A stretch of DNA of 64,000 nucleotides from an uncultured archaeon. Lineage in GTDB: Archaea > Asgardarchaeota > Thorarchaeia > Thorarchaeales > Thorarchaeaceae. The DNA is taken from positions 1 through 64,000 of the forward strand of contig CAZLEV010000006.1 in NCBI GenBank assembly GCA_964558645.1, read 5' to 3'. Below, one piece after another: positions 8,362 through 60,589 of the stretch. Every line of letters begins with the position of its first letter. The first letter of the stretch is position 1. Both the position numbers and the translations under genes were made by a program. A model generated the notes under the pieces. It searched no databases. It had not been told where the DNA came from and saw only the letters and a program-made list of their open reading frames with translations.

Positions 8362-10941
8362 ATGAAGAACGACGCATTGGAGGAAGAAAGGACGAACGCG
8401 ACACTGACGTCGTGGTGGGCTATGCCGGTAGAGGATGTGCTCGTCAAGTTGGATGTCAACCCCACGACTGGTCTCTCAACTGAGAGAGTTCAGACGCAGC
8501 GAGCAGCCTTCGGTGCGAATCTCATGAGGGGTCTGGAACCAACCAGTCCCTGGACGTTGGTAGAGGAGAGCCTAAAGGAACCAATGATGGTGTTGTTGCT
8601 GTCTATTGCCGCGGTCTCCCTCGTCTTCGGCGAGTTAGTCCAAGCGACGGTGATGGTGTTTGTCGTTGCTGCATATATCGGGGTCGAGTTTCTCAACAAA
8701 TACCGATCCGACCGCACAATGACCCGCCTAAGAGAGCTTACTCAACCAACTACACGAGTCGTCCGCGAGAGAGAGGAACAAGAGATTCCAACGGCGAATG
8801 TCGTCGTTGGCGACATAATAGTCCTGTCGACAGGCGTCCGTGTTGCAGCAGATGCTCGGCTAGTAAGATCGAGCGGCCTCCTAGTCAATGAGGCTCCCCT
8901 GACAGGTGAATCTGAACCCATCAGGAAGCGGGCAAATGCAGAGGTGTCTGAGGAAACTAATCTTGCAGATATTACGAATAGCGTCTTTTCCGGCACGACA
9001 GTCCTCAATGGTGAAGGAAAGGCAGTCGTTCTGGCAGTGGGACGCAATACCGAGTTTGGAAAGATTGCGGAACAGGTCCGCGCAGCAGGGAGAGAGCGAA
9101 CCGCACTACAGCAGGCAATGACTCAACTGTCCAAGACCCTTGCCCTGTTTGCAGTCCTTGTCAGCATTGTCATTCCTGTTGTTGGATTTCTGCGAGGGTT
9201 CGCTCTGGAGCAGATGGTGCTGACATGGCTGGCTCTCACTTTTCTGATGGTCCCGGGCCAACCACCCGTCATCATCACGATGGCACTAGCTCTTGCATCC
9301 TTCGAACTTGCACGGAAGAACGTCGTGGTTAAGCAGCTAAGCGGAGCAGAAACACTCGGCTCAGTGACGTCCATCCTCACGGATAAGACTGGGACAATAA
9401 CAGAGAATCGAATGCAAGTTGAGAAGTTTGTGCTGGCAGACGGAACTGAGAAGGAGCCACAGAGTCTTCCTCAGAGGATCAGGGCAAGGATTTTTCTCGC
9501 ACTTCCAAACCATATCAATGACCCCACCGATGAAGCAGTGCAGAGAGCAATCGACACGGATACAGAACAAGAGAAACCTGTGCCGGCTCTATTTGAGGGG
9601 TTCTCTGATGAGCATCCTTGGCGGAACCTGAACTATCGCATGGGCGAGAAGTATGTCCATGCCATAGCCGGAGAGCCCGAGCTCTTAGTGGACGCCTCCG
9701 GCCTTTCTGAAGAGAGAAGGAGAAGTCTGAAGAAACGAGTGGCGGAAGAGGGAGATGCGGGCAGGCGCGTTGTTGCTTTTGCCTCTGTGGAAACGGACGC
9801 GAAGACCCTCGGCGAGTTGAAGGGGTTGGAGCTCGAGGCGTTGGCAGTTCTGGAGGACCCAGTTCGTCCTGGACTACAGGATGCAGTCGTTGCCCTAAGA
9901 GCTGCAGGCATTGAAACCTTCATAGTGACCGGAGATCATGCTGCAATCACGAAGACCGTCGCCAGTAAGATTGGTGTCGAAAGCAGAATAGTGACCGGTA
10001 ATCAGCTACGGAGTATGAGCGACGCCGAACTGATGGAGAGCCTCCGCTCAGTTCGCATCTTCGCTCGCACAGCTCCATCGCAGAAGCTACGCCTAGTGGA
10101 GGCATTGCAGGAGATGGGACAGCGAGTTGCTGTGATCGGAGATGGTGTGAATGACACTCCTGCTATCAAGGCTGCTGACGTTGGTGTGGCCATGGGCGAG
10201 ATTGGTACTGATCTCGCCAAGGAGACCGCTGATCTCGTATTGACAGATGACAACTATATCCACATTCGTGATGCCGTGGAGATTGGGAGGAGAGCTATCG
10301 ACAATTTCAGAAAGGGTCTGACATACTACTTCTCCGCGAAGGCGATACTCCTCTTCATCTTCATTATTCCCCTAGCTCTTGGAGTTCCCTTCCCTCTCTC
10401 GCCAATCCATATCATCATGATCGAACTTCTGATGGATCTTGCGTCATCGACAATCTTCGTATCGGAGGTTGCAGAGCCTGGTATCTTGAAACGGCCTCCG
10501 CAGAGTATTGGTGAGTATCTGGAGCTGCCAATTATTGTGAGAATCATCAGAAACAGCGCAGCACTCACCGTTGGAATCCTGCTCATGTATCTGTCCCTCT
10601 ACTTGGGGACGGGAGAGGTTGTCCTCTCACGGACAGCCGCTCTTGTGACTTGGCTTCTTGGGCATATTCTACTGGCACTCAATCTGAAGCAGGAAAAGAC
10701 ACCCCTTCTGAAGCAGGGTTTCTTCTCCAATCGCTTCGGTGCATTCTGGTTGCTCAGCATGATTGCACTGGCGGCCCTGATCACGAATGTCCCCTTTGTG
10801 TTCCCGTTTCTAGACACAACCTCGCTCCCTCTGGAGGTATGGTTGCAGGTCTTGATGATCGTCTTGGCTTCGACATTCTGGCTGGAGGCGCTCAAGTGGA
10901 TCCAACTGAAGAGAGATTCCGTCAATCTGAAGGGCACCTGA
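8362..10941 (+). CDS. P2-type cation-transporting P-type ATPase
   Basis: TGES, DKTGT, TGD, GDGVND motifs; multiple TM segments; M4 reads VPGQPP. Confidence 0.95.
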   Translation: MKNDALEEERTNATLTSWWAMPVEDVLVKLDVNPTTGLSTERVQTQRAAFGANLMRGLEPTSPWTLVEESLKEPMMVLLLSIAAVSLVFGELVQATVMVFVVAAYIGVEFLNKYRSDRTMTRLRELTQPTTRVVREREEQEIPTANVVVGDIIVLSTGVRVAADARLVRSSGLLVNEAPLTGESEPIRKRANAEVSEETNLADITNSVFSGTTVLNGEGKAVVLAVGRNTEFGKIAEQVRAAGRERTALQQAMTQLSKTLALFAVLVSIVIPVVGFLRGFALEQMVLTWLALTFLMVPGQPPVIITMALALASFELARKNVVVKQLSGAETLGSVTSILTDKTGTITENRMQVEKFVLADGTEKEPQSLPQRIRARIFLALPNHINDPTDEAVQRAIDTDTEQEKPVPALFEGFSDEHPWRNLNYRMGEKYVHAIAGEPELLVDASGLSEERRRSLKKRVAEEGDAGRRVVAFASVETDAKTLGELKGLELEALAVLEDPVRPGLQDAVVALRAAGIETFIVTGDHAAITKTVASKIGVESRIVTGNQLRSMSDAELMESLRSVRIFARTAPSQKLRLVEALQEMGQRVAVIGDGVNDTPAIKAADVGVAMGEIGTDLAKETADLVLTDDNYIHIRDAVEIGRRAIDNFRKGLTYYFSAKAILLFIFIIPLALGVPFPLSPIHIIMIELLMDLASSTIFVSEVAEPGILKRPPQSIGEYLELPIIVRIIRNSAALTVGILLMYLSLYLGTGEVVLSRTAALVTWLLGHILLALNLKQEKTPLLKQGFFSNRFGAFWLLSMIALAALITNVPFVFPFLDTTSLPLEVWLQVLMIVLASTFWLEALKWIQLKRDSVNLKGT

Positions 10942-31070: not shown

Positions 31071-31881
31071 CCGATGATAGAATGTACGCGGTAATCACTT
31101 CAGGATCTTCTGTTTCAACATCCATTTTGCTAAAGAACCGAGTCATGTTTTGAATGTCACGGAGTAGGTATTTCCCAGCGTAGTCGTGTGCAGTGAGTAC
31201 TGCTTGAGAAACGTCAATGATTATTGGTTTGTCGTGCCAAAGAATGTTGAACTCGCTTAGGTCGGCATGAACAAGACCAGCGTCATTGTAGCCGACAGCA
31301 ATCATGTCGATTATGTCATTGAACACATCAGCAGGATGTTCAAGAATAGCGTCCTTCAGAAGGGGAGCTGGGAGTGCTGACTCCTTGTCCCCAATGAACT
31401 CCATGATTAGCACATTCTTTTCTATATCAATTGGCTCTGGGACCTTCACGCCAGCCTGATGGTATCTTTGAAGATTCTTGTATTCTTTCATGGCCCACAG
31501 GGGGATGAGAGTACGCGCATTGCGCCGTATCCTTTTGAAACGCGGGTCGCCAACAATGTATTCAAGCATATAGTCTGATTCGGCGGTGGTCATTCGGTAA
31601 ATCTTGACTGCGACTGCCATTCCATCCAAATCCTCGCCCCGATAGACATTCGCCTCCTTTCCGGTGCTAATAGCACCATGTACTGCGTTAATCGAACCAC
31701 GACTCAAAAGCTTGTACAGAATTTTCAGGGTGGGGGGGTCTATGACGCCTTCTATGACTTTGAACTCATCAGAATCCTTTCTTCGTGTGGAGCGGTCATC
31801 AATTCTGTCCTCTATGAGCCGTCGTTTCTTCTCAGCATCACGCAAGATATTCACCGACAATGTGCGGTATTCTCTACTCAT
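31063..31881 (-). CDS. rio1: RIO1 atypical protein kinase
   Basis: STGKEANVY, HADLSEFN, IDVSQ. Confidence 0.95.
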   Translation of the reverse strand: MSREYRTLSVNILRDAEKKRRLIEDRIDDRSTRRKDSDEFKVIEGVIDPPTLKILYKLLSRGSINAVHGAISTGKEANVYRGEDLDGMAVAVKIYRMTTAESDYMLEYIVGDPRFKRIRRNARTLIPLWAMKEYKNLQRYHQAGVKVPEPIDIEKNVLIMEFIGDKESALPAPLLKDAILEHPADVFNDIIDMIAVGYNDAGLVHADLSEFNILWHDKPIIIDVSQAVLTAHDYAGKYLLRDIQNMTRFFSKMDVETEDPEVITAYILSSGE

Positions 31882-31921
31882 TCATCTCGCTTAGAACACT
31901 TCTGTGCAGAAAAAGGCTTGG

Positions 31922-32251
31922 CTAGAACATCTTGAGAATGCCCCGTTTCTTCAACCAGTCAATCTCATTACCCCGATAACGCCAGACAACATCACACTTT
32001 TCGTCGGTCTGGAAGGCCCAAGGTACTACCAAGACAGTGTCGCCGATTCTCATCCATATACGTTTCTTCATTCTGCCTGGAATACGGCCGATACGAATCT
32101 CCCCATCCTCACATCGGACCCGGACTCTGTCATGACCAAGCATCTGGATTATGATACCGAACATCTCGCCTTCGTCACGTCTCGGCGTTCTGACTCTGAA
32201 TGTCTCATCGTCTCCTTGGGAATTTCTGTTTCTGCGGGACAAAGTAATCAT
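31922..32251 (-). CDS. eif1a: Translation initiation factor aIF-1A
   Basis: MLG..RVRVRCEDG..RIGRIPGRMKKRIWMRIGD. Confidence 0.96.
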   Translation of the reverse strand: MITLSRRNRNSQGDDETFRVRTPRRDEGEMFGIIIQMLGHDRVRVRCEDGEIRIGRIPGRMKKRIWMRIGDTVLVVPWAFQTDEKCDVVWRYRGNEIDWLKKRGILKMF

Positions 32252-52602: not shown

Positions 52603-53124
52603 CTAGAGCCAGTGGGATATTTGAAAGAAGACAATGACCGGTGCGAGCAGCAGCGCTCTCACCATCAGTGACTGTCCTCTGTTCTTCAGCTCTCTGGAGG
52701 AGGGCGTAAAATAAAGAATAGCGCCCCCCAGTATTGCCACGGCAACCATGATTTGTGCCAGAAACAGTAGCAGGGCCACCAGATCTGTATCACTCATGCC
52801 GAGTAGTGATAACCACGCCTGGGTAGCTGTTTCCAGCGTGATACCGCTGATACCAGCAATTCCGGCAAATAGGGTAACAAGATAGGGGCCAATGAAGTAG
52901 AGGGCAACTCCGACTACAATCAATATCTTTGCCAGTGAATCACTCAGGGAGGAAACGAACACTATGAGCCCTGCAAGAATCAGAATGAAATACCCTCTGA
53001 TGGATAGTGCGTAAAGAACGTTGAATGCAAAAGCAACGATATCAAGCCAAGACTGGAGCTGTTCATCTGGAAACGGCATCTGCATCAGCGATGCCCAGAG
53101 TAAGACATCGTCCATTACATCCAC
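52603..53124 (-). CDS. Four-TM membrane protein resembling a tandem pilin-like duplication
   Basis: Two helix-loop-helix units; the second (GAILYFTP..ELKNRGQSLM) resembles ORF 1315-1566. Confidence 0.55.
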   Translation of the reverse strand: MDVMDDVLLWASLMQMPFPDEQLQSWLDIVAFAFNVLYALSIRGYFILILAGLIVFVSSLSDSLAKILIVVGVALYFIGPYLVTLFAGIAGISGITLETATQAWLSLLGMSDTDLVALLLFLAQIMVAVAILGGAILYFTPSSRELKNRGQSLMVRALLLAPVIVFFQISHWL

Positions 53125-53158
53125 GAAATTAAGTGACTATAGAGGAATATAACCACCG

Positions 53159-53710
53159 CTACTCAAGTTCCTCCATTAGAAGCTGAAAGTCCTTCTCAAT
53201 CTGTGACCTTATCTTCGGAAATCTGAGAGCTGCTGCAGGATGATATGTTATGAAGTAGGTATAACCATCTGCCTCATAGAAGCTACCGTGAGCATCAGAG
53301 ATCTTCCAAGGCCCTATCAGAGACGAGGTTGCTACACCTCCAAGTAATACAATGATATCAGGTTGAATTATCTCGATCTGTCTATCAAGGTACGGAATAC
53401 ATGCCTCGATTTCGTCCTTCCGGGGCGTTCTGTTCTTTGGAGGTCTAGACTTTAGAATAGATGTGATAAACACCTTCTCCCGAGGAAGTCCAATCTTGTT
53501 CAGTAAATCAGTGAGCAACTTACCAGAAGAACCGACGAAGGGACGGCCAGTCTCGTCCTCTCTCTTCCCTGGTGCCTCCCCCACAAGCATGACTTGAGCG
53601 TCTATAGGACCCTCTCCCGGGACTGCGTTATTTCGTGTCTTATGTAAGTCACACTTTGTGCAGTTCCTGATCTCTCTGTGTAGAATTTCAAGTGACTCCA
53701 GCCTGCTCAT
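53159..53710 (-). CDS. udg: Family 4 uracil-DNA glycosylase
   Basis: CTKC, GEAPG..ED.TG.PFVG, YHPAA.LR. Confidence 0.93.
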   Translation of the reverse strand: MSRLESLEILHREIRNCTKCDLHKTRNNAVPGEGPIDAQVMLVGEAPGKREDETGRPFVGSSGKLLTDLLNKIGLPREKVFITSILKSRPPKNRTPRKDEIEACIPYLDRQIEIIQPDIIVLLGGVATSSLIGPWKISDAHGSFYEADGYTYFITYHPAAALRFPKIRSQIEKDFQLLMEELE

Positions 53711-53828
53711 TATAGACCACATTGAGATAGGCTTTACGATTAAAAAGGACAACCAAACCGATACCAGCACGATTAGAGCTGAAGGGCCTGCTTACACTTG
53801 TACGAAATAGACCTTAAAAGCAGAATCA

Positions 53829-55508
53829 ATGAGTTCTCAGGTAGTAGTTCTAGGAGTTGCAGAAGACATGCGTATGCTACGAACCACTTCGGAAACCTTT
53901 CCGGCCGAGAAAGAAATGATGAGTGATATCCCATATGTACTTCGAGTGGAGTTTGGGGCCCTTGAAGAAGAGGCAGAGAGAATCATCGGCAGGCCGATAG
54001 TGTGTTACAAGTGTGGTGGTTTTCTCCTCAGTGTGGATCAGATAATTGAGGAGGACAAGGTCGGCAGGCATTTCATCTGTTCCTTTTGTGGAACACTAAA
54101 TGTTATTGAGGGGAAGATAATCACTGCAGGGGATAATACCGACTTCGTTGTCGAGCCCCCTCGTGAGGTCGCAGAATCTCAGAAAGAACCAGTAAAGCAA
54201 TTTGGAGGGAGCTTTCTCGCACTCATAGACGTTTCAGGTTCTATGGCAGGCGCCAACCTCGCTGCTGTCAAGAGGAGTCTCAGGACATCAGTTGAGAGCC
54301 TAGCTAAAAACGCGCCAAACACCATGTTCGGCCTGATTGAATTCGAGAGTGGAGTCTTATTCAGAGACCTCCATTCGGGTGGAAAAATAGCCCTCCCGCG
54401 TAACTCCTATGCCAGTTTTCACGAGATACAGAAAGAAACCAAGAAGCTGATGGACCAGATTAGATTTCTGAGTGTTGGCGAGAATTCAGACAAGATCAAG
54501 AAGCATCTCAATGCATTGCGTGATCAAGGAGGAACGGCTCTCGGCCCCGCTGTTGCCATGGGATATACTATTGCAAAACACCGAGATGTGGGTCGTGTTG
54601 TGCTGTTAACCGATGGGCTAGCCAATGAGGGCATAGGGGCGCTGGAAGGCTACCAAGTCACTCCCGCAGCCAACTTCTACGAAGAAGTAGGGCTTCAGTT
54701 CATGGAAAACGGTACTGCAGTCGATGTTGTAGGCATTGCGTCGGGCGCCGGGATGGAGCTCAAGACATTGGGCCTTCTTGCAGAGGCTACAGGCGGGCAG
54801 ATGTACTATGTTACACCTAACGAGCTTGACCAGAGTATAGCGGAGTTGGCAGGCAGTTCTCTCCTTGGTCGGGATGTGGAAGTGCGACTGATTACACCCA
54901 CCGGTGTCAAAGTGAAAGATGCATCAGGGGTTTCGCGCGCGATTATTGAAGAACTGAGAACCAAAGGCGAGAGCAAAATCGGAGCAGTTGGGGAGAATCA
55001 CGAACTCTATTTCGAGATTGAACCCGAAAGTAGAATTGAGGCGGAAGATGTGCCCATTCAGGTTCAGGTGACCTATACCGATGCAGAGGGGGCCCGAAGA
55101 GTTCGGGCAGTGACAACCATACTTAAGGTTGCAAGGGATAACAAGGAATTGCTGGAAACCCTTGACCCCACCATAGGTGCAACGTTTGTGACTCAAAAAG
55201 CAGGAGAAGAGTCTTTCAGAGGGAATCGAGAGGGGGGGAAGAAACGTATTGCGTCTTTCAGAGCAGCAATGAATAAACAGGCCAAGTCAGCGCCAGGGCC
55301 AATTCAGAATCGGATGAATGAGATAGACAATGTCTTGGCTGAGGAAGAGGGTGAAATGGAGCGTTTGGATGATATGATGAAAGCTGCACCCGCTTCGGCG
55401 CCATCTACAGCAGCCGATCAGGCATACACCTCAGGACTTCAGCAGATGCGTCGTAGTTCGAAGCAGATGTTCGGCAAGAATAAGGCCGACGAAGAGGAAG
55501 AGGAGTAG
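53829..55508 (+). CDS. Sec23/Sec24-like protein (Zn finger, vWA trunk, beta-sandwich, helical region)
   Basis: CYKC..FICSFCGTLN; DVSGSM, GTALGPA, TDGLAN, LAEATGG; IQVQVTYTD.EG.RRVRAVT. Confidence 0.82.
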   Translation: MSSQVVVLGVAEDMRMLRTTSETFPAEKEMMSDIPYVLRVEFGALEEEAERIIGRPIVCYKCGGFLLSVDQIIEEDKVGRHFICSFCGTLNVIEGKIITAGDNTDFVVEPPREVAESQKEPVKQFGGSFLALIDVSGSMAGANLAAVKRSLRTSVESLAKNAPNTMFGLIEFESGVLFRDLHSGGKIALPRNSYASFHEIQKETKKLMDQIRFLSVGENSDKIKKHLNALRDQGGTALGPAVAMGYTIAKHRDVGRVVLLTDGLANEGIGALEGYQVTPAANFYEEVGLQFMENGTAVDVVGIASGAGMELKTLGLLAEATGGQMYYVTPNELDQSIAELAGSSLLGRDVEVRLITPTGVKVKDASGVSRAIIEELRTKGESKIGAVGENHELYFEIEPESRIEAEDVPIQVQVTYTDAEGARRVRAVTTILKVARDNKELLETLDPTIGATFVTQKAGEESFRGNREGGKKRIASFRAAMNKQAKSAPGPIQNRMNEIDNVLAEEEGEMERLDDMMKAAPASAPSTAADQAYTSGLQQMRRSSKQMFGKNKADEEEEE

Positions 55509-55677
55509 CACTAAACAGACGGCCGTTTGTTCATCTTTCGCCTGTCTGTGGGAGAAACATGATTCCCACAGAATGCGCAAAAGAGATATGCATGAGGGGA
55601 CACACTGCCACAACTCTCAAATACCCAAGAGCGACCTAGAAACTGCTGACGCACTATCTAACAGTGGGGATTCACGG

Positions 55678-55968
55678 TTGATTAGCCAAGAGCGACTTGA
55701 TGCAATTCTAGCAGATCTTACAGCCCAGGAGGGCGTTAGAGGAGTCGTAGTCACAACCATGGAAGGTCTACCATTGAGCAGTGATCTTCCACCTGAAACC
55801 ACTGAAGCCGTCGCTGCAATACTGACCTCTCTGGTAGGTAAGGCACTTGATGCAGTTCGAGAGCTTAAGGAGGGGTCTTTGTCGTTCCTGACCCTCGATA
55901 CAACCGAGGGACAGATAAACATCGCACCGGATGTTAAGGAGGGCCTCATATTAGTAGTCCTCAAATAG
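55678..55968 (+). CDS. Roadblock/LC7 domain protein
   Basis: GVRGVVVTTMEGLPLSS..AVAA. Confidence 0.9.
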   Translation: MISQERLDAILADLTAQEGVRGVVVTTMEGLPLSSDLPPETTEAVAAILTSLVGKALDAVRELKEGSLSFLTLDTTEGQINIAPDVKEGLILVVLK

Positions 55969-55993
55969 GAAGGTATCCAAGAGGTACACCATC

Positions 55994-56461
55994 ATGAGCG
56001 ATCCGAAAGCCTTTGACAAGATACTCACGGAGATTATTCGGCAAGATAAGGGAATCAAGAAAGTGATTCTTGTCGATAAGACTGGGCTGACAATAGCCAA
56101 TGTGAGCAAGTTGAGTTACTACCCTGTGGATGTGGACAGTATCGGTGCAATTGCGAGTGCCGTGTTTTGTGCTAGTGAAGAACAGGGTAAGAACCTGCAA
56201 ATAGGAGAGCTTGAGATTGTGACATCCGAGTTCTCGGAGGGGAAGATTTTCGCCTCGGCCTGTGGTAAGGGAGTTCTCTGTGTGGTATCAGAGGCAGAGG
56301 TCAATATCGGCCTCATTCGTCTGGTAATGAAGAAACAGGGTAAGCAACTGGCAGACGAACTGGACAAGTTCCTCGCAGTGGAACCAATGGCACCCAGCAA
56401 GGATCGCGAGCTTGACGAGGAAGACCTCAAGTCCGCCTTGGCCGAACTCGAGAGAGTTTAG
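55994..56461 (+). CDS. Roadblock/LC7 (MglB-like) protein with acidic C-terminal helix
   Basis: VILVDKTGLTIA, IGAIAS, NIGLIRL. Confidence 0.9.
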   Translation: MSDPKAFDKILTEIIRQDKGIKKVILVDKTGLTIANVSKLSYYPVDVDSIGAIASAVFCASEEQGKNLQIGELEIVTSEFSEGKIFASACGKGVLCVVSEAEVNIGLIRLVMKKQGKQLADELDKFLAVEPMAPSKDRELDEEDLKSALAELERV

Positions 56462-56730
56462 GTTCACATGTTCATGTCCGTGATCACTGGTACTCCCTTG
56501 ATATGTGGACCCCCAGTTCCAAAACCGGGAAAGGTCTTCCAAGCAGGGGTTGATTTCTTGGCGGGCCACACGACGGACAAAGGCTTTTATGAGACTAAAC
56601 TTCTATCACCTTCAACCTCCCGAGGCTAGGCCCGAAACTCGTGAGGATACTCTGACCTTTGTGGGTCGCCCCTGATGCAATTGCATCCGGCAAGTTGGAT
56701 CCTCTGGGTCTCATCGAACACGGGTAAGCA

Positions 56731-57315
56731 GTGAATCTACGAGGTGTTCCAGTGAGAAAGGACGACAAAGGGCGAATACATCTGAAGCTGGTATTCTATG
56801 GTCCAAGCTTAGGTGGAAAGACGACCGCTCTTCGCTGGCTTTATGGAAAAGTGGAAGGTTTACAGAAAGGAGAGTTCACTGCGATCGAGGATGAAACAAA
56901 CCGAACTCTGTTCTTCGACTATGTGCCAATGAGTGCAGGAGGGCGGGTCTTATTCGACGTTTTCACTGTTGCTGGTCAGAAACGGCACAGGCATCAACGA
57001 AAGGTGGTTTTACAGGGTACCGACGGAATTCTGTTTGTTGCAGACTCTTCACCCGATCAACGTGATGAGAATACGGAGAGTTTCGAAGAACTCAAGCTCT
57101 TTCTAGGGGATGCCTTGGGCCGGGAGATTCCCATTGTTGTGATGTTGAACAAACGAGACCTTCCCAACCGCATGTCGCGTGATGAGATGCTCGATCTACT
57201 GGGTCTGGGAGGCAATGTGCCCATTTATGAAACGATTGCTATCCAAGGCGTAGGAGTTAAGAGAGCATTTCAGGCTATAGCACGAGAAGTAATCCTCAAA
57301 AGGATGTACAAGTAG
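56731..57315 (+). CDS. MglA-type small GTPase
   Basis: G1 GPSLGGKTT, RTLFFD, G3 TVAGQ, G4 NKRD. Confidence 0.92.
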   Translation: MNLRGVPVRKDDKGRIHLKLVFYGPSLGGKTTALRWLYGKVEGLQKGEFTAIEDETNRTLFFDYVPMSAGGRVLFDVFTVAGQKRHRHQRKVVLQGTDGILFVADSSPDQRDENTESFEELKLFLGDALGREIPIVVMLNKRDLPNRMSRDEMLDLLGLGGNVPIYETIAIQGVGVKRAFQAIAREVILKRMYK

Positions 57316-57331
57316 AGCCAGGTGAACTGAT

Positions 57332-57703
57332 ATGAGTGAATCCCGTGGAGAAACCCTCGAAGGTGTTCTAAATGAGCTACAGGGTAGTATCCCTGAGATT
57401 GAGGCCTGTGCCATTGTTAGTGTAGAGGGGTTGCCAATCGTGTCAGCCCTGCCCGCAGATGTTGATGAGGCAAAATTAGCTGCGATAACGGCTGCGATGC
57501 TAACTCTTGGTGAGAAGGCTGCAGTTGAACTAGGAAAGGGTGAGCTCGAACAGGTCAATGTAAAGGGCAGGGAAGGGTGGGTTCTTGTCATTCAGGCGGG
57601 TATGAACGCCTGTCTTACAGTTTCAACAACAGGCACCGCCAAACTTGGTCTTGTATTTCTTGATATGAAACGAGCAGCAGAGAAAGTCGCGATGATGATA
57701 TAG
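57332..57703 (+). CDS. Roadblock/LC7 domain protein
   Basis: AIVSVEGLPIVSAL, LAAITAAML.LGE, AKLGLVFLDM. Confidence 0.92.
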   Translation: MSESRGETLEGVLNELQGSIPEIEACAIVSVEGLPIVSALPADVDEAKLAAITAAMLTLGEKAAVELGKGELEQVNVKGREGWVLVIQAGMNACLTVSTTGTAKLGLVFLDMKRAAEKVAMMI

Positions 57704-57767
57704 GACCGGATTTCTTCTATCACCAACTCTTTTAGGGTACCAGGGATTTTCTTGTGTACACGAGAGA

Positions 57768-58547
57768 GTGTGTTGCTCAGTGAATATCACAGGCCCCATG
57801 TACCGACTCTATGAGTATGTACTGAACAGACAGCTCAGTCGAGATAGAGCTCCAAAACATGTAGGAATAATACTGGATGGAAACAGACGATATGCTCGAG
57901 AACATGGCCATGATGTCCCATGGTTTGGACACCGCAAGGGTGCTCAAAAAGTCATGGACGTTCTCCGAATCTTGTGGGAAGCGGGCGTTAAAATCTGCAC
58001 ACTCTATGCCTTCTCTGTTGAGAACTTCCAGAGAAACAAACATGAGGTTTCTGAAATAATGGAGATTGCCAAGGAGAAATTTGCAGAGGTTGTAGATAAT
58101 CCAGACATTCACCGCCACAGAGTACAGATAAGGGCCATTGGCCGTGTGGATCTCCTACCAGCTGACGTGCAGCGGGCAATAGCTGCTGCCGAAGGAGAAA
58201 CCGCGGACTATGAGGAACATATTCTGAACGTTGCGATAGGCTATTCGGGTAGGGCTGAAGTAGTCGATGCAGTTCAAGCAATTGGAGCGAAGATTCAAGA
58301 TGGAGATCTTGCGCCATCAGAAGTGAACGAACATATTATCGAACAGCACCTCTACACATATGGCGTCCCAGACCCTGATTTGATAATCCGGACTTCAGGC
58401 GAAGAACGTCTCTCAGGGTTTCTACTCTGGCAGTCCGCCTATTCCGAGCTGTACTTTGCTCAAGTCTATTGGCCGGCGGTTCGAAGGATTGACATCTGGC
58501 GAGCTCTACGATCATATGAGCGAAGATCGAGAAGGTACGGAAAATAG
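57768..58547 (+). CDS. uppS: cis-prenyltransferase (polyprenyl diphosphate synthase)
   Basis: ILDGNRR, FSVENFQR, IRTSGEERLSGFLLWQ. Confidence 0.96.
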   Translation: MCCSVNITGPMYRLYEYVLNRQLSRDRAPKHVGIILDGNRRYAREHGHDVPWFGHRKGAQKVMDVLRILWEAGVKICTLYAFSVENFQRNKHEVSEIMEIAKEKFAEVVDNPDIHRHRVQIRAIGRVDLLPADVQRAIAAAEGETADYEEHILNVAIGYSGRAEVVDAVQAIGAKIQDGDLAPSEVNEHIIEQHLYTYGVPDPDLIIRTSGEERLSGFLLWQSAYSELYFAQVYWPAVRRIDIWRALRSYERRSRRYGK

Positions 58548-58632
58548 GGAGTTGCATTGTCTTTCCGTTCTGGTTACACAGCGGTTTATATGTCCCATCT
58601 AATGAGGTTCTACCAGTCAGTCACTATGCGGC

Positions 58633-59868
58633 ATGATGCTTCCCGCACTTCAAGGAGAAGAAGTGGAATTGACACGAAACCCACTTGAAACATATCAAGG
58701 ACTTATCACGAGTACTCTGACCGACGAGATCCAATCATATATCTTAAAGGTCGTTGAGAGATATTCGGATGCCACCTTTGCTGATGAGAAGTTCTCCGTT
58801 CACTTGGGGCGTTTCGTGGAGCTTGTCTGTCGACTTATTTCGAACCTGAACAACCGGAAGGAGGCGACTCTGACTGATCTTATGCAAGCTGTTGACATTC
58901 TAGATTATTTTGCATCCACAACTCGATGGTGGAATATGACACGTTCATCGCCCGGGATAATTCTCCGGCCTGCAACACGAGAGCCACGTGAATTCATAAA
59001 GTCGGTTCCATCGGTGCGGCTAGGTAGTGAAACCATCAGCAGGATACAAGGTGCGTCAGACCGTCTTTCGTCATTTCTGAATGAGCACGAGATTGCCGGT
59101 TCGGATACCAGAGATCATCTACAACGTTCTATGGTGTCAGCATGGACCATCCTCAGTGCATTCTGCTGCAAGAGTCAAGGGCGCAATGTGTCTTCCGAAG
59201 TAGATTTCGAAACCGCATACGACATCCTCAGGATACTCCTCTTCCACACACCCCGCGTTGATTTTGTTGCACTAAGCGCGATTAGGAATATCGCCACCAG
59301 TTCTCGACTTCCGAAGATTGCTGACGTTGCCTTTTCACCCGGCTTTGAGAAGAAACTCGATTCATCGATAGCTGCGAAGCTGGAGGCAGCCCATGGTGAA
59401 TACCTCGGGGATGCAGGCGATACAGTCCCCAGAGTATCTCGTGCCATCTTGACAAACTCAATCAGATTGCTTGCACAGATTGAGAGTGTGAATATAGGTA
59501 TCAATAGAATAGAAGAGGACGACTATGATAGAGTGACCATGGGGGCCCTCAGCCTACTGGAGAAGGTCCGCATTGACCCGGAGATATTTCACGATGAAAA
59601 CGTTGTGGTTGGACTTTTCAAGAGGCTTACACCTGCAGAAGAGGACATTGGCGAGGGGCTGGCACTACTCACACGAAAACTGGAGAGTCTGATTGTTGAC
59701 TCCACAGGCAATCGCAATTTCCTGCTCCAACACGCAAGAGTGGTACCTCGACTAATTGCTTTGCTTCTTTTGATCTCGAGCGGCACCAAGTCACCCGAGG
59801 ATGATGGACTAAGAGATATCGATTTGAAGAGAGGTTTGATTCTGTTAGAGAACCTGATCAGTGATTAG
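58633..59868 (+). CDS. Hypothetical protein with four AAA-lid-like repeats
   Basis: Recurrent helix-loop-D-helix units; no Walker motifs. Confidence 0.55.
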   Translation: MMLPALQGEEVELTRNPLETYQGLITSTLTDEIQSYILKVVERYSDATFADEKFSVHLGRFVELVCRLISNLNNRKEATLTDLMQAVDILDYFASTTRWWNMTRSSPGIILRPATREPREFIKSVPSVRLGSETISRIQGASDRLSSFLNEHEIAGSDTRDHLQRSMVSAWTILSAFCCKSQGRNVSSEVDFETAYDILRILLFHTPRVDFVALSAIRNIATSSRLPKIADVAFSPGFEKKLDSSIAAKLEAAHGEYLGDAGDTVPRVSRAILTNSIRLLAQIESVNIGINRIEEDDYDRVTMGALSLLEKVRIDPEIFHDENVVVGLFKRLTPAEEDIGEGLALLTRKLESLIVDSTGNRNFLLQHARVVPRLIALLLLISSGTKSPEDDGLRDIDLKRGLILLENLISD

Positions 59869-60589
59869 CATGATCATCAATGAGAATCCTTGCATCAATG
59901 ACGAGAGCACCTTCACCTTCTTCATAGACAAATGTGGGATTACAGTCGAGTTCCGTAATCTCAGGATTCTCATCCACCATTTTAGAAACTGATAAGATGA
60001 CATCAATGAGCGCATCTATATCTCTGGGTTTCTGCCCTCTCACACCTTCGAGAATCTTCGACGCTTTGATCTCCTGCACCATCTCCCTTGCATCTGTTTC
60101 GCTAAGCGGGATAAGTCGAAAAGTCACATCCTTTAGGACTTCCACAAAAATGCCGCCGAGGCCGAACATAAGGGCGTGTCCAAACTGCGGATCTTCCGTG
60201 ACACCTACGATCACCTCAGTTCCCATATCTGCAAATTGTGAGATGAAAACACCACGACTGAGATCAACAGTCAGATTGTTTCTCCGACCGTACTCCCTTG
60301 CGTTTTTCATTATTTCATCGAATGCTTCGGTGACTTCTTCATCGCTTTTCAGGTTGGTTTTCACCCCGCCGGCATCAGACTTGTGAAGAATGTCCTTGGA
60401 GAGAATCTTCAGCACAACTGGATATCCGATCTTATTCGCTTTTTCCACTGCCTCATCAGCAGTAGCCGCAGTATCGTATTCTGGAATCGGAATTCCATAG
60501 GTACTCATGATATCCTTTGCCTCGTGCTCAAGGACGAAAGACCGTCCTTCCTTCCTTGCCTCTTCGAATATTCTCTTTGCAACTTTCAT
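59858..60589 (-). CDS. acdB: ADP-forming acyl-CoA synthetase beta subunit (ATP-grasp)
   Basis: GYPVVLKI.S.DILHKSD.GGV, DPQFG, ELDCNP. Confidence 0.92.
   Translation of the reverse strand: MKVAKRIFEEARKEGRSFVLEHEAKDIMSTYGIPIPEYDTAATADEAVEKANKIGYPVVLKILSKDILHKSDAGGVKTNLKSDEEVTEAFDEIMKNAREYGRRNNLTVDLSRGVFISQFADMGTEVIVGVTEDPQFGHALMFGLGGIFVEVLKDVTFRLIPLSETDAREMVQEIKASKILEGVRGQKPRDIDALIDVILSVSKMVDENPEITELDCNPTFVYEEGEGALVIDARILIDDHANH

Follow-up and report, generated by a model that had tools for sequence, protein, structure and literature searches.

What does a Sec23/24-like protein do next to an MglA-type GTPase in an Asgard archaeon? The question is raised by a 64,000-nucleotide stretch of DNA (the window, by which we mean the whole stretch analysed) from an uncultured member of the Thorarchaeaceae (contig CAZLEV010000006.1 of assembly GCA_964558645.1, positions 1 to 64,000), in which genes for a Sec23/24-like protein (Sec-like protein below), two roadblock proteins (Rbl1 and Rbl2), a small GTPase of the MglA type and a third roadblock protein (Rbl3) follow one another. 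A first-pass annotation, made from the letters of the window, proposed that the Sec-like protein is an effector or scaffold recruited by GTP-bound MglA and switched off by roadblock dimers, a coat-like pairing unlike that of Sar1 with COPII. We consider it probable that the locus is an ancient, Asgard-wide MglA-roadblock switch that stands beside a Sec23/24-like adaptor, the latter likely not being an obligate part of the switch.

All five open reading frames (ORFs) proved to be real. They lie on the plus strand where the first-pass annotation had placed them, and Pfam agrees with the domains it had assigned; only the starts of two genes had to be corrected. The Sec-like gene occupies positions 53829-55508, and its start is most likely the ATG at 53868, 13 codons inside the ORF, because homologues begin there and an AGGAG sequence is present at 53852-53856. 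Rbl1, a protein of 96 amino acids, is encoded at 55678-55968 and begins with a TTG codon that is kept across the genera of the Thorarchaeota family studied here (the Thor family), and Rbl2 is encoded at 55994-56461. The MglA gene (56731-57315) most likely starts with the GTG at 56752, which has GAGGTG in front of it and yields a protein of 187 amino acids. Rbl3 is encoded at 57332-57703. Close homologues bear the name Candidatus Thorarchaeota, and among them is a “SEC24 family transport protein” of Thor SMTZ1-45. Identity across the Thor genera is 90-99% for MglA, 86-99% for Rbl2 and 45-80% for the Sec-like protein; these values are far beyond chance and, judging by them, the cluster genes are under strong selection. 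An Rfam search of positions 53000-60000 found nothing.

By its sequence, the GTPase is a clear MglA of the Group 1 type. Solved MglA structures match it almost from end to end (E 5e-38), and it carries the motifs GPSLGGKTT, NRTLFFD, TVAGQ and NKRD, which bears out the signatures (P-loop, intrinsic arginine and TVxGQ) that had been noticed on first reading. Both the P-loop GxxxxGKT and the NKxD motif of Group 1 are present, the G3 threonine that replaces aspartate in TVxGQ is found in TVAGQ, and the arginine finger beside the G2 threonine corresponds to R58-T59, which aligns to the RT of Myxococcus xanthus MglA. In an alignment of 19 Asgard MglA orthologues, R58-T59 (switch I), T79, G82 and Q83 (all three in TVAGQ) and NKxD are invariant. 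The intrinsic arginine and TVxGQ are hallmarks of Group 1 MglA, whose arginine-bearing form has been placed in bacteria only (PMC4316618); the Asgard form is therefore “bacterial-like”, and a “bacterial-like” MglA has been noted in the Asgard archaeon MK-D1 (PMC10933270). The genome of the window encodes further MglA-like paralogues (contig C19, positions 789-1340 and 8777-9118; contig C16, positions 31661-32161), with identities of 52% and 36%, and one of the paralogues has an Rbl3-like roadblock gene 7 kb away.

The three roadblock proteins also held up, including the one to which an acidic C-terminal helix had been ascribed: Rbl1, Rbl2 and Rbl3 all exceed the Pfam Robl_LC7 cut-off, with 55, 37.8 and 60.7 bits, respectively. 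Rbl1 matches best the Robl_LC7 domain protein of PDB entry 7f8f (E 3e-23) and then dynein DYNLRB (1e-10), and on these matches it is a short roadblock of the dynein-LC7 type. The best matches of Rbl2 are the MglB structures 6izw and 6h5b (E 4e-5), followed by a weak match to LAMTOR2; the alignment to MglB (chain 6izw_B, E 3.5e-5) covers residues 13-149 and thus runs from the roadblock domain through the acidic C-terminal helix. Rbl2 also passes the cut-off of the Pfam family MAPKK1_Int (LAMTOR3) with 32 bits. Since its score with the NCBIfam MglB model is 22 against a cut-off of 200, Rbl2 is a distant relative of MglB and not an equivalog. Rbl3 is a full-length roadblock of the Asgard RB type, whose best match is 7f8m, another Robl_LC7 domain protein (E 1e-22).

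By analogy with the bacterial proteins, the following mechanism can be proposed. MglA would cycle between GTP- and GDP-bound forms. A roadblock dimer containing Rbl2 would most likely be its GTPase-activating protein (GAP), bringing Arg58 and Gln83 of MglA itself into position in the manner of bacterial MglB, and the acidic C-terminal helix of Rbl2 may tune nucleotide exchange. Rbl1, Rbl3 and a fourth roadblock protein, Rbl4, which is described below, would most likely form further roadblock dimers acting as a platform or as co-regulators, comparable to MglC of Myxococcus or to the LAMTOR pairs of Ragulator. The well-supported unit of the locus is this MglA-roadblock switch, which most likely works like bacterial MglA-MglB.

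With the MglA-MglB(-MglC) systems of M. xanthus and Thermus thermophilus, the Asgard switch shares the intrinsic arginine by the G2 threonine, TVxGQ, the near-full-length MglA match, a neighbouring roadblock (Rbl2) with an MglB-type C-terminal helix and the presence of extra roadblock paralogues, as in the case of Myxococcus MglC. It differs from them in its three roadblock genes (four in the ancestral locus) of three types, one of them dynein-LC7-like, in its archaeal host and in having no RomR/RomX. Ragulator/Rag likewise combines several different roadblocks with one small GTPase, and Rbl2 resembles LAMTOR3 and LAMTOR2, but the GTPase of the window is of the MglA type rather than a Rag with a roadblock domain of its own, and the locus encodes no anchor resembling LAMTOR1.

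The distribution of the genes was surveyed in a sample of 400 genomes of the Asgard phylum. An MglA orthologue is present in 371 of them, and the Sec-like gene in 150, which belong to 11 families. The order Rbl1-Rbl2-MglA-Rbl3 without the Sec-like gene was observed in families f2, f4, f7, f12 (Hermod), f13, f15 and f21 (Frey/Jord) and, in part, in f17 and f18, that is, in at least eight families, and Rbl3 comes after MglA in most Asgard families sampled. In the clusters that lack the Sec-like gene, a gene for a fourth, divergent roadblock protein, Rbl4, is usually transcribed away from Rbl1. Two loci of the Heimdall-type family f20 (L063 and L069) are unlike most Asgard families, since the MglA orthologue stands alone there, with no roadblock gene within 6 kb.

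The adjacency of the Sec-like gene and MglA is confined to the Thor family. In 20 loci from nine other Asgard families, the MglA and Rbl genes are not beside the Sec-like gene, and on a complete Freyarchaeia chromosome the Sec-like gene and MglA are 860 kb apart. Thus, the linkage that had been taken for a shared module is conserved inside one family only. Within that family, two genomes (G005 and G013) have kept the cluster, with MglA 92-96% identical, while no Sec-like gene was found in them, and in a third (G006) the Sec-like gene is located on another contig and the Rbl-MglA cluster is intact.

Nearly all Thor loci examined have the order Sec-like, Rbl1, Rbl2, MglA, Rbl3, cis-prenyltransferase, orf411, and in about 60 of the 77 Thor genomes that contain the Sec-like gene MglA is found 1.1-4.9 kb downstream of it on the same contig. 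Upstream, 16 out of 16 other Thor loci, that of the sister species G002 included, show the order SMC, Rbl4 (divergent), Sec-like, Rbl1, Rbl2, MglA, Rbl3. Since Rbl4 is found immediately before the Sec-like gene, in divergent orientation, the latter has its place within the old locus, with Rbl4 on one side and Rbl1 on the other. In the window’s own genome (G000, contig C6), Rbl4 and SMC (71656-72021, 72219-73466) are instead located 16 kb downstream on the plus strand; relative to locus L031, this would be accounted for by an inversion of about 18 kb, one breakpoint of which lay immediately before the Sec-like gene (53829). Only in the Thor family did the Sec-like gene come to stand between Rbl1 and Rbl4; it appears to have a promoter of its own and can be lost or moved. 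On this comparative evidence, it is a family-specific, dispensable neighbour of the switch.

Putative transcription signals were found at three places in the cluster. The spacer between the Sec-like gene and Rbl1 contains a putative Rbl1 promoter region (55572-55625, plus strand) with two elements that are conserved across Thor genera: the element AATGCGCAAA at 55572-55581 is followed by a box resembling a B recognition element (BRE) and TATA box, CCACAA(C/G)TCT(C/A)AAATAC, which reads CCACAACTCTCAAATACC in the window (55608-55625), then by a Shine-Dalgarno-like GGGGAT and then by the conserved TTG start. In three Thor genomes without an adjacent Sec-like gene, both the element and the box are found at an equal distance before Rbl1. 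The Sec-like gene is preceded by a TATA-like box of its own and the AGGAG sequence. Upstream of MglA, a putative promoter box, GACAAAGGCTTTTATGAGACT (56577-56597, plus strand), is common to about 10 Thor loci and stays with MglA where foreign genes have been inserted upstream. Taken together, the separate promoter-like boxes and the insertion of foreign genes into the cluster suggest that there are three transcription units, with putative promoters in front of the Sec-like gene, Rbl1 and MglA. The first-pass annotation had named independent transcription among the observations that would speak against its proposal, and the separate, conserved promoter-like boxes go a long way towards it, their function being putative.

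The inserted genes differ between Thor genomes. The Rbl2-MglA spacer contains in some of them a 321-amino-acid ORF together with a TetR gene of opposite orientation, and elsewhere a gene for a 529-amino-acid protein; other insertions are a zinc-ribbon gene between MglA and Rbl3 and a transposase-like gene after MglA. Both the Rbl2-MglA and the MglA-Rbl3 spacers are insertion spots that also hold broken pieces of Rab-like GTPase genes, and several assemblies break there (insertions were found in loci L013, 1703-4023; L018, 2995-4018; L030, 4610-6929 and 7501-8290; L016, 5483-6280; and L029, 2063-3094). The AATGCGCAAA element, which has a palindromic TGCGCA core about 105 nucleotides upstream of Rbl1 and occurs once in the window, may be a binding site of a regulator. 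A shared operator was considered and rejected: in 17 loci, TGCGCA is found neither before the Sec-like gene nor before MglA, and the comparison thus gives no sign of a common regulon.

What, then, is the Sec-like protein? Sec23/24 was reportedly first described in Thor in a paper of 2017. In Pfam searches, the window protein scored 45.6 bits with Sec23_trunk (cut-off 27), 32.2 bits with Sec23_BS (cut-off 33.5) and E 0.04 with the zinc finger. An AlphaFold2 model (predicted local distance difference test score, pLDDT, 83.7; predicted template-modelling score, pTM, 0.86) ends in helices 438-558. When the model was used in a fold search, the top 46 PDB matches were all Sec23 or Sec24 (E 1e-29 to 1e-20, template-modelling (TM) scores 0.62-0.70). 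The domain order, zinc finger, vWA trunk, beta-sandwich and helical domain, is that of Sec23 and Sec24, and C59, C62, C84 and C87 of the zinc finger, as well as D134, S136, S138, T236 and D262 of the metal-ion-dependent adhesion site (MIDAS), are invariant in an alignment of 29 Asgard homologues. No gelsolin domain was matched by Pfam, and the model stops in helices at residue 558. Thus, the fold matches, Pfam and the model agree with the initial assignment of a Sec23/24 architecture without an apparent gelsolin domain, the site of the GAP arginine of Sec23. The absence of the gelsolin domain has already been published for all Asgard Sec23-like proteins (PMC11914678). A protein of 1200 amino acids from NCBI (P0129, on a 23 kb contig) combines a full actin domain (484 bits) with a Sec23_trunk/vWA region; it is either a real fusion or an artefact of the gene model.

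The Sec-like protein therefore resembles COPII Sec23/Sec24 in fold, in domain order and in a beta-sandwich motif, QxQ..Y.D..G..R.R, which it has in common with Sec24. It differs from them in that it lacks the gelsolin domain with its GAP arginine, in that its MIDAS is invariant and in that it is present as a single copy, only one match, and no Sec23-Sec24 paralogous pair, having been found in the genome of the window. Moreover, the adjoining GTPase is MglA and not Sar1/Arf. No GTPase domain was matched by Pfam in the Sec-like chain itself (P0001), the GTPase being a separate gene of another family 1.2 kb downstream. At the level of sequence, the match to Sec24 is marginal (E 1e-4).

Ranked next after Sec23/24 in the fold search were a vWA protein of bacterial origin and the ArnA/ArnB complex of Sulfolobus (E 1e-15, TM 0.46). 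The core of ArnA-ArnB has been described as an archaeal counterpart of the Sec23/24 core (PMC12852372), and its structure (PDB 8s05) shares with the Sec-like protein a vWA, beta-sandwich and helical core with a zinc finger. One could thus imagine that the Sec-like protein acts as a regulator of the ArnB kind, an adaptor that binds its partners via the MIDAS, is perhaps controlled by phosphorylation and has no link to a GTPase. The invariance of the MIDAS would suit such a role, as would the residue-level alignment to one Sec24, in which the three MIDAS positions covered (S136, S138 and T236) face other residues. However, the ArnB match is much weaker than those to Sec23/24 (the latter reaching TM 0.70); the zinc finger of the Sulfolobus complex is carried by a separate FHA protein, the system is regulated by kinases, and neither an FHA protein nor a kinase is found among the conserved neighbours of the Sec-like gene, at the window locus or elsewhere. 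We hold an ArnB-like role of this kind to be very doubtful.

A different hint emerged when longer relatives were sought. Proteins of rotifers, about 1030 amino acids long, match the Sec-like protein with E 1e-27 and 1e-20, and P0128, a protein of 1021 amino acids encoded by one ORF on a 3144-nucleotide contig, combines a canonical Ras/Rab-like domain with a zinc finger, a MIDAS-containing vWA domain and a beta-sandwich. The similarity of P0126-P0128 to the Sec-like protein (E 1e-27 to 1e-16) is far stronger than that of Sec24, and the motifs IDxSGSM, TALGPA, TDGLANxGxG and QVQxxYT are common to the rotifer proteins, P0128 and the Asgard protein. The cpRAS-VWA proteins of eukaryotes, together with relatives in which the VWA part stands alone, have been described (Elias and Novotny 2008, PMC2430557), and the Sec-like protein shares with them a four-cysteine zinc finger and a vWA (“Sec23 trunk”) module with strong mutual similarity. 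The eukaryotic proteins differ from it in their length of about 1000 amino acids and in that some of them contain in the same polypeptide a Ras-type GTPase domain, circularly permuted in cpRAS and canonical in P0128, which the Sec-like protein does not have. The closest eukaryotic relatives of the Sec-like protein, as far as sequence similarity can tell, are thus of the cpRAS/VWA type, some of them fused to Ras-like GTPases.

Given these fusions, the Sec-like protein might work with a Ras/Rab-type GTPase encoded elsewhere in the genome, its MglA neighbourhood in the Thor family being incidental. In seven Loki-type loci, the Sec-like gene is preceded at 0.8-1.3 kb by a Rab-like gene of the same orientation; five Heimdall-type loci have a Rab-like gene in the opposite orientation at a distance of 4 kb. 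Yet Asgard genomes hold tens of small GTPases, so that chance proximity is not rare (by a rough estimate, about one family would be expected to show it by chance, and three do); a Rab-like neighbour was seen in only two non-Thor families, and an Asgard Arf-like GTPase bound three Sec23-like proteins in yeast weakly and independently of the nucleotide (PMC11914678). The Rab-like neighbours are suggestive of a GTPase partnership but not significant, and we judge such a Ras/Rab-type partner to be improbable. Outside the Thor family, no neighbour of the Sec-like gene is conserved in more than two families. In one f24 genome (L042) a roadblock ORF precedes the Sec-like gene, and in f26 (L052) a 500-amino-acid protein near the Sec-like gene has a roadblock-like region; both were set aside as likely chance, because Asgard genomes carry many roadblock genes.

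Three points weigh against our reading of the Sec-like gene as a mere neighbour of the MglA-roadblock switch. First, no clear terminator was found after the Sec-like gene in the window by a bacterial-type scan, the promoter and terminator counts of which were at chance level and which does not model archaeal promoters; read-through into Rbl1 is therefore possible. Second, the Thor adjacency has been held over 16 genera, even through the 18 kb inversion that ended just before the Sec-like gene, and selection for linkage is therefore possible. Third, the Ras-type fusions of the eukaryotic relatives and the Rab-like neighbours in two Asgard families make some GTPase partnership of the Sec-like protein plausible.

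The same long-lived adjacency, the position of the Sec-like gene between two roadblock genes and the published GTPase fusions (PMC2430557) would also speak for the proposal that MglA-GTP recruits the Sec-like protein as its effector or scaffold. However, the two genes are unlinked in the nine other Asgard families that have both, and Thor genomes in which no Sec-like gene adjoins the cluster still have the whole switch. The promoter-like boxes are separate, and the operator-like motif of Rbl1 is common neither to the Sec-like gene nor to MglA. Further, the whole block from SMC to orf411 is syntenic in the Thor family, and the retained position of the Sec-like gene therefore needs no selection; the GTPases fused in the eukaryotic relatives are Ras/Rab-like, not MglA; and MglA and the Sec-like protein have changed at different rates within the Thor family (90-99% versus 45-80% identity). 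A complex prediction for residues 14-550 of the Sec-like protein with GTP, Mg and residues 8-194 of MglA, both supplied as alignments, gave a score of 0.00, which counts neither for nor against binding. We therefore regard recruitment by MglA as unlikely. Of the original proposal, MglA with its roadblock regulators stands as a real conserved module, while the part assigned to the Sec-like protein does not, its linkage being limited to the Thor family and the putative promoters being separate. Since the Sec-like gene is beside the switch in one family only and has an apparent promoter of its own, its location is no evidence of a primitive vesicle coat.

Downstream of Rbl3, the plus strand of the window encodes a cis-prenyltransferase of the undecaprenyl-diphosphate (UPP)/dehydrodolichyl-diphosphate synthase type (57768-58547; PF01255, 254.7 bits). 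A cis-prenyltransferase gene is located directly 3′ of Rbl3 in families f1, f2, f4, f12, f13 and f15 and at a distance of about 2 kb in f21, and this recurrence suggests a link of the MglA-roadblock switch with the synthesis of a polyprenyl (dolichol-type) lipid carrier. The arrangement was seen in the window and in loci L053, L059, L060, L062, L067 and L070. The next gene, orf411 (58633-59868, plus strand), is conserved and ends the syntenic block of the Thor family; its product is 40-85% identical among Thor loci and has no match in Pfam.

Asgard Sec23-like proteins are under discussion as ancestors of the COPII inner coat (PMC11914678). In the literature searched, we found neither a description of the MglA-roadblock locus as a module of this kind nor one of its neighbourhood with the Sec-like gene. 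The locus provides concrete candidates for the GTPase partners of Asgard Sec23-like proteins, namely, MglA and the roadblocks in Thor and the Rab-like neighbours of the Loki and Heimdall types. Caution is called for, since, judged by sequence, Sec23/24 appears to be less close to the Asgard Sec-like proteins than is the cpRAS/VWA family, a little-studied group of eukaryotic proteins. If MglA did recruit the Sec-like protein as its effector, this would be a natural pairing of a coat-like protein with a small GTPase that is distinct from Sar1-COPII and that echoes the Ras fusions of the eukaryotic relatives. Independently of this, a bacterial-type MglA with three or four distinct roadblock partners constitutes a well-defined and highly conserved module; it is near-universal among the Asgard archaea, and a cis-prenyltransferase gene often accompanies it.

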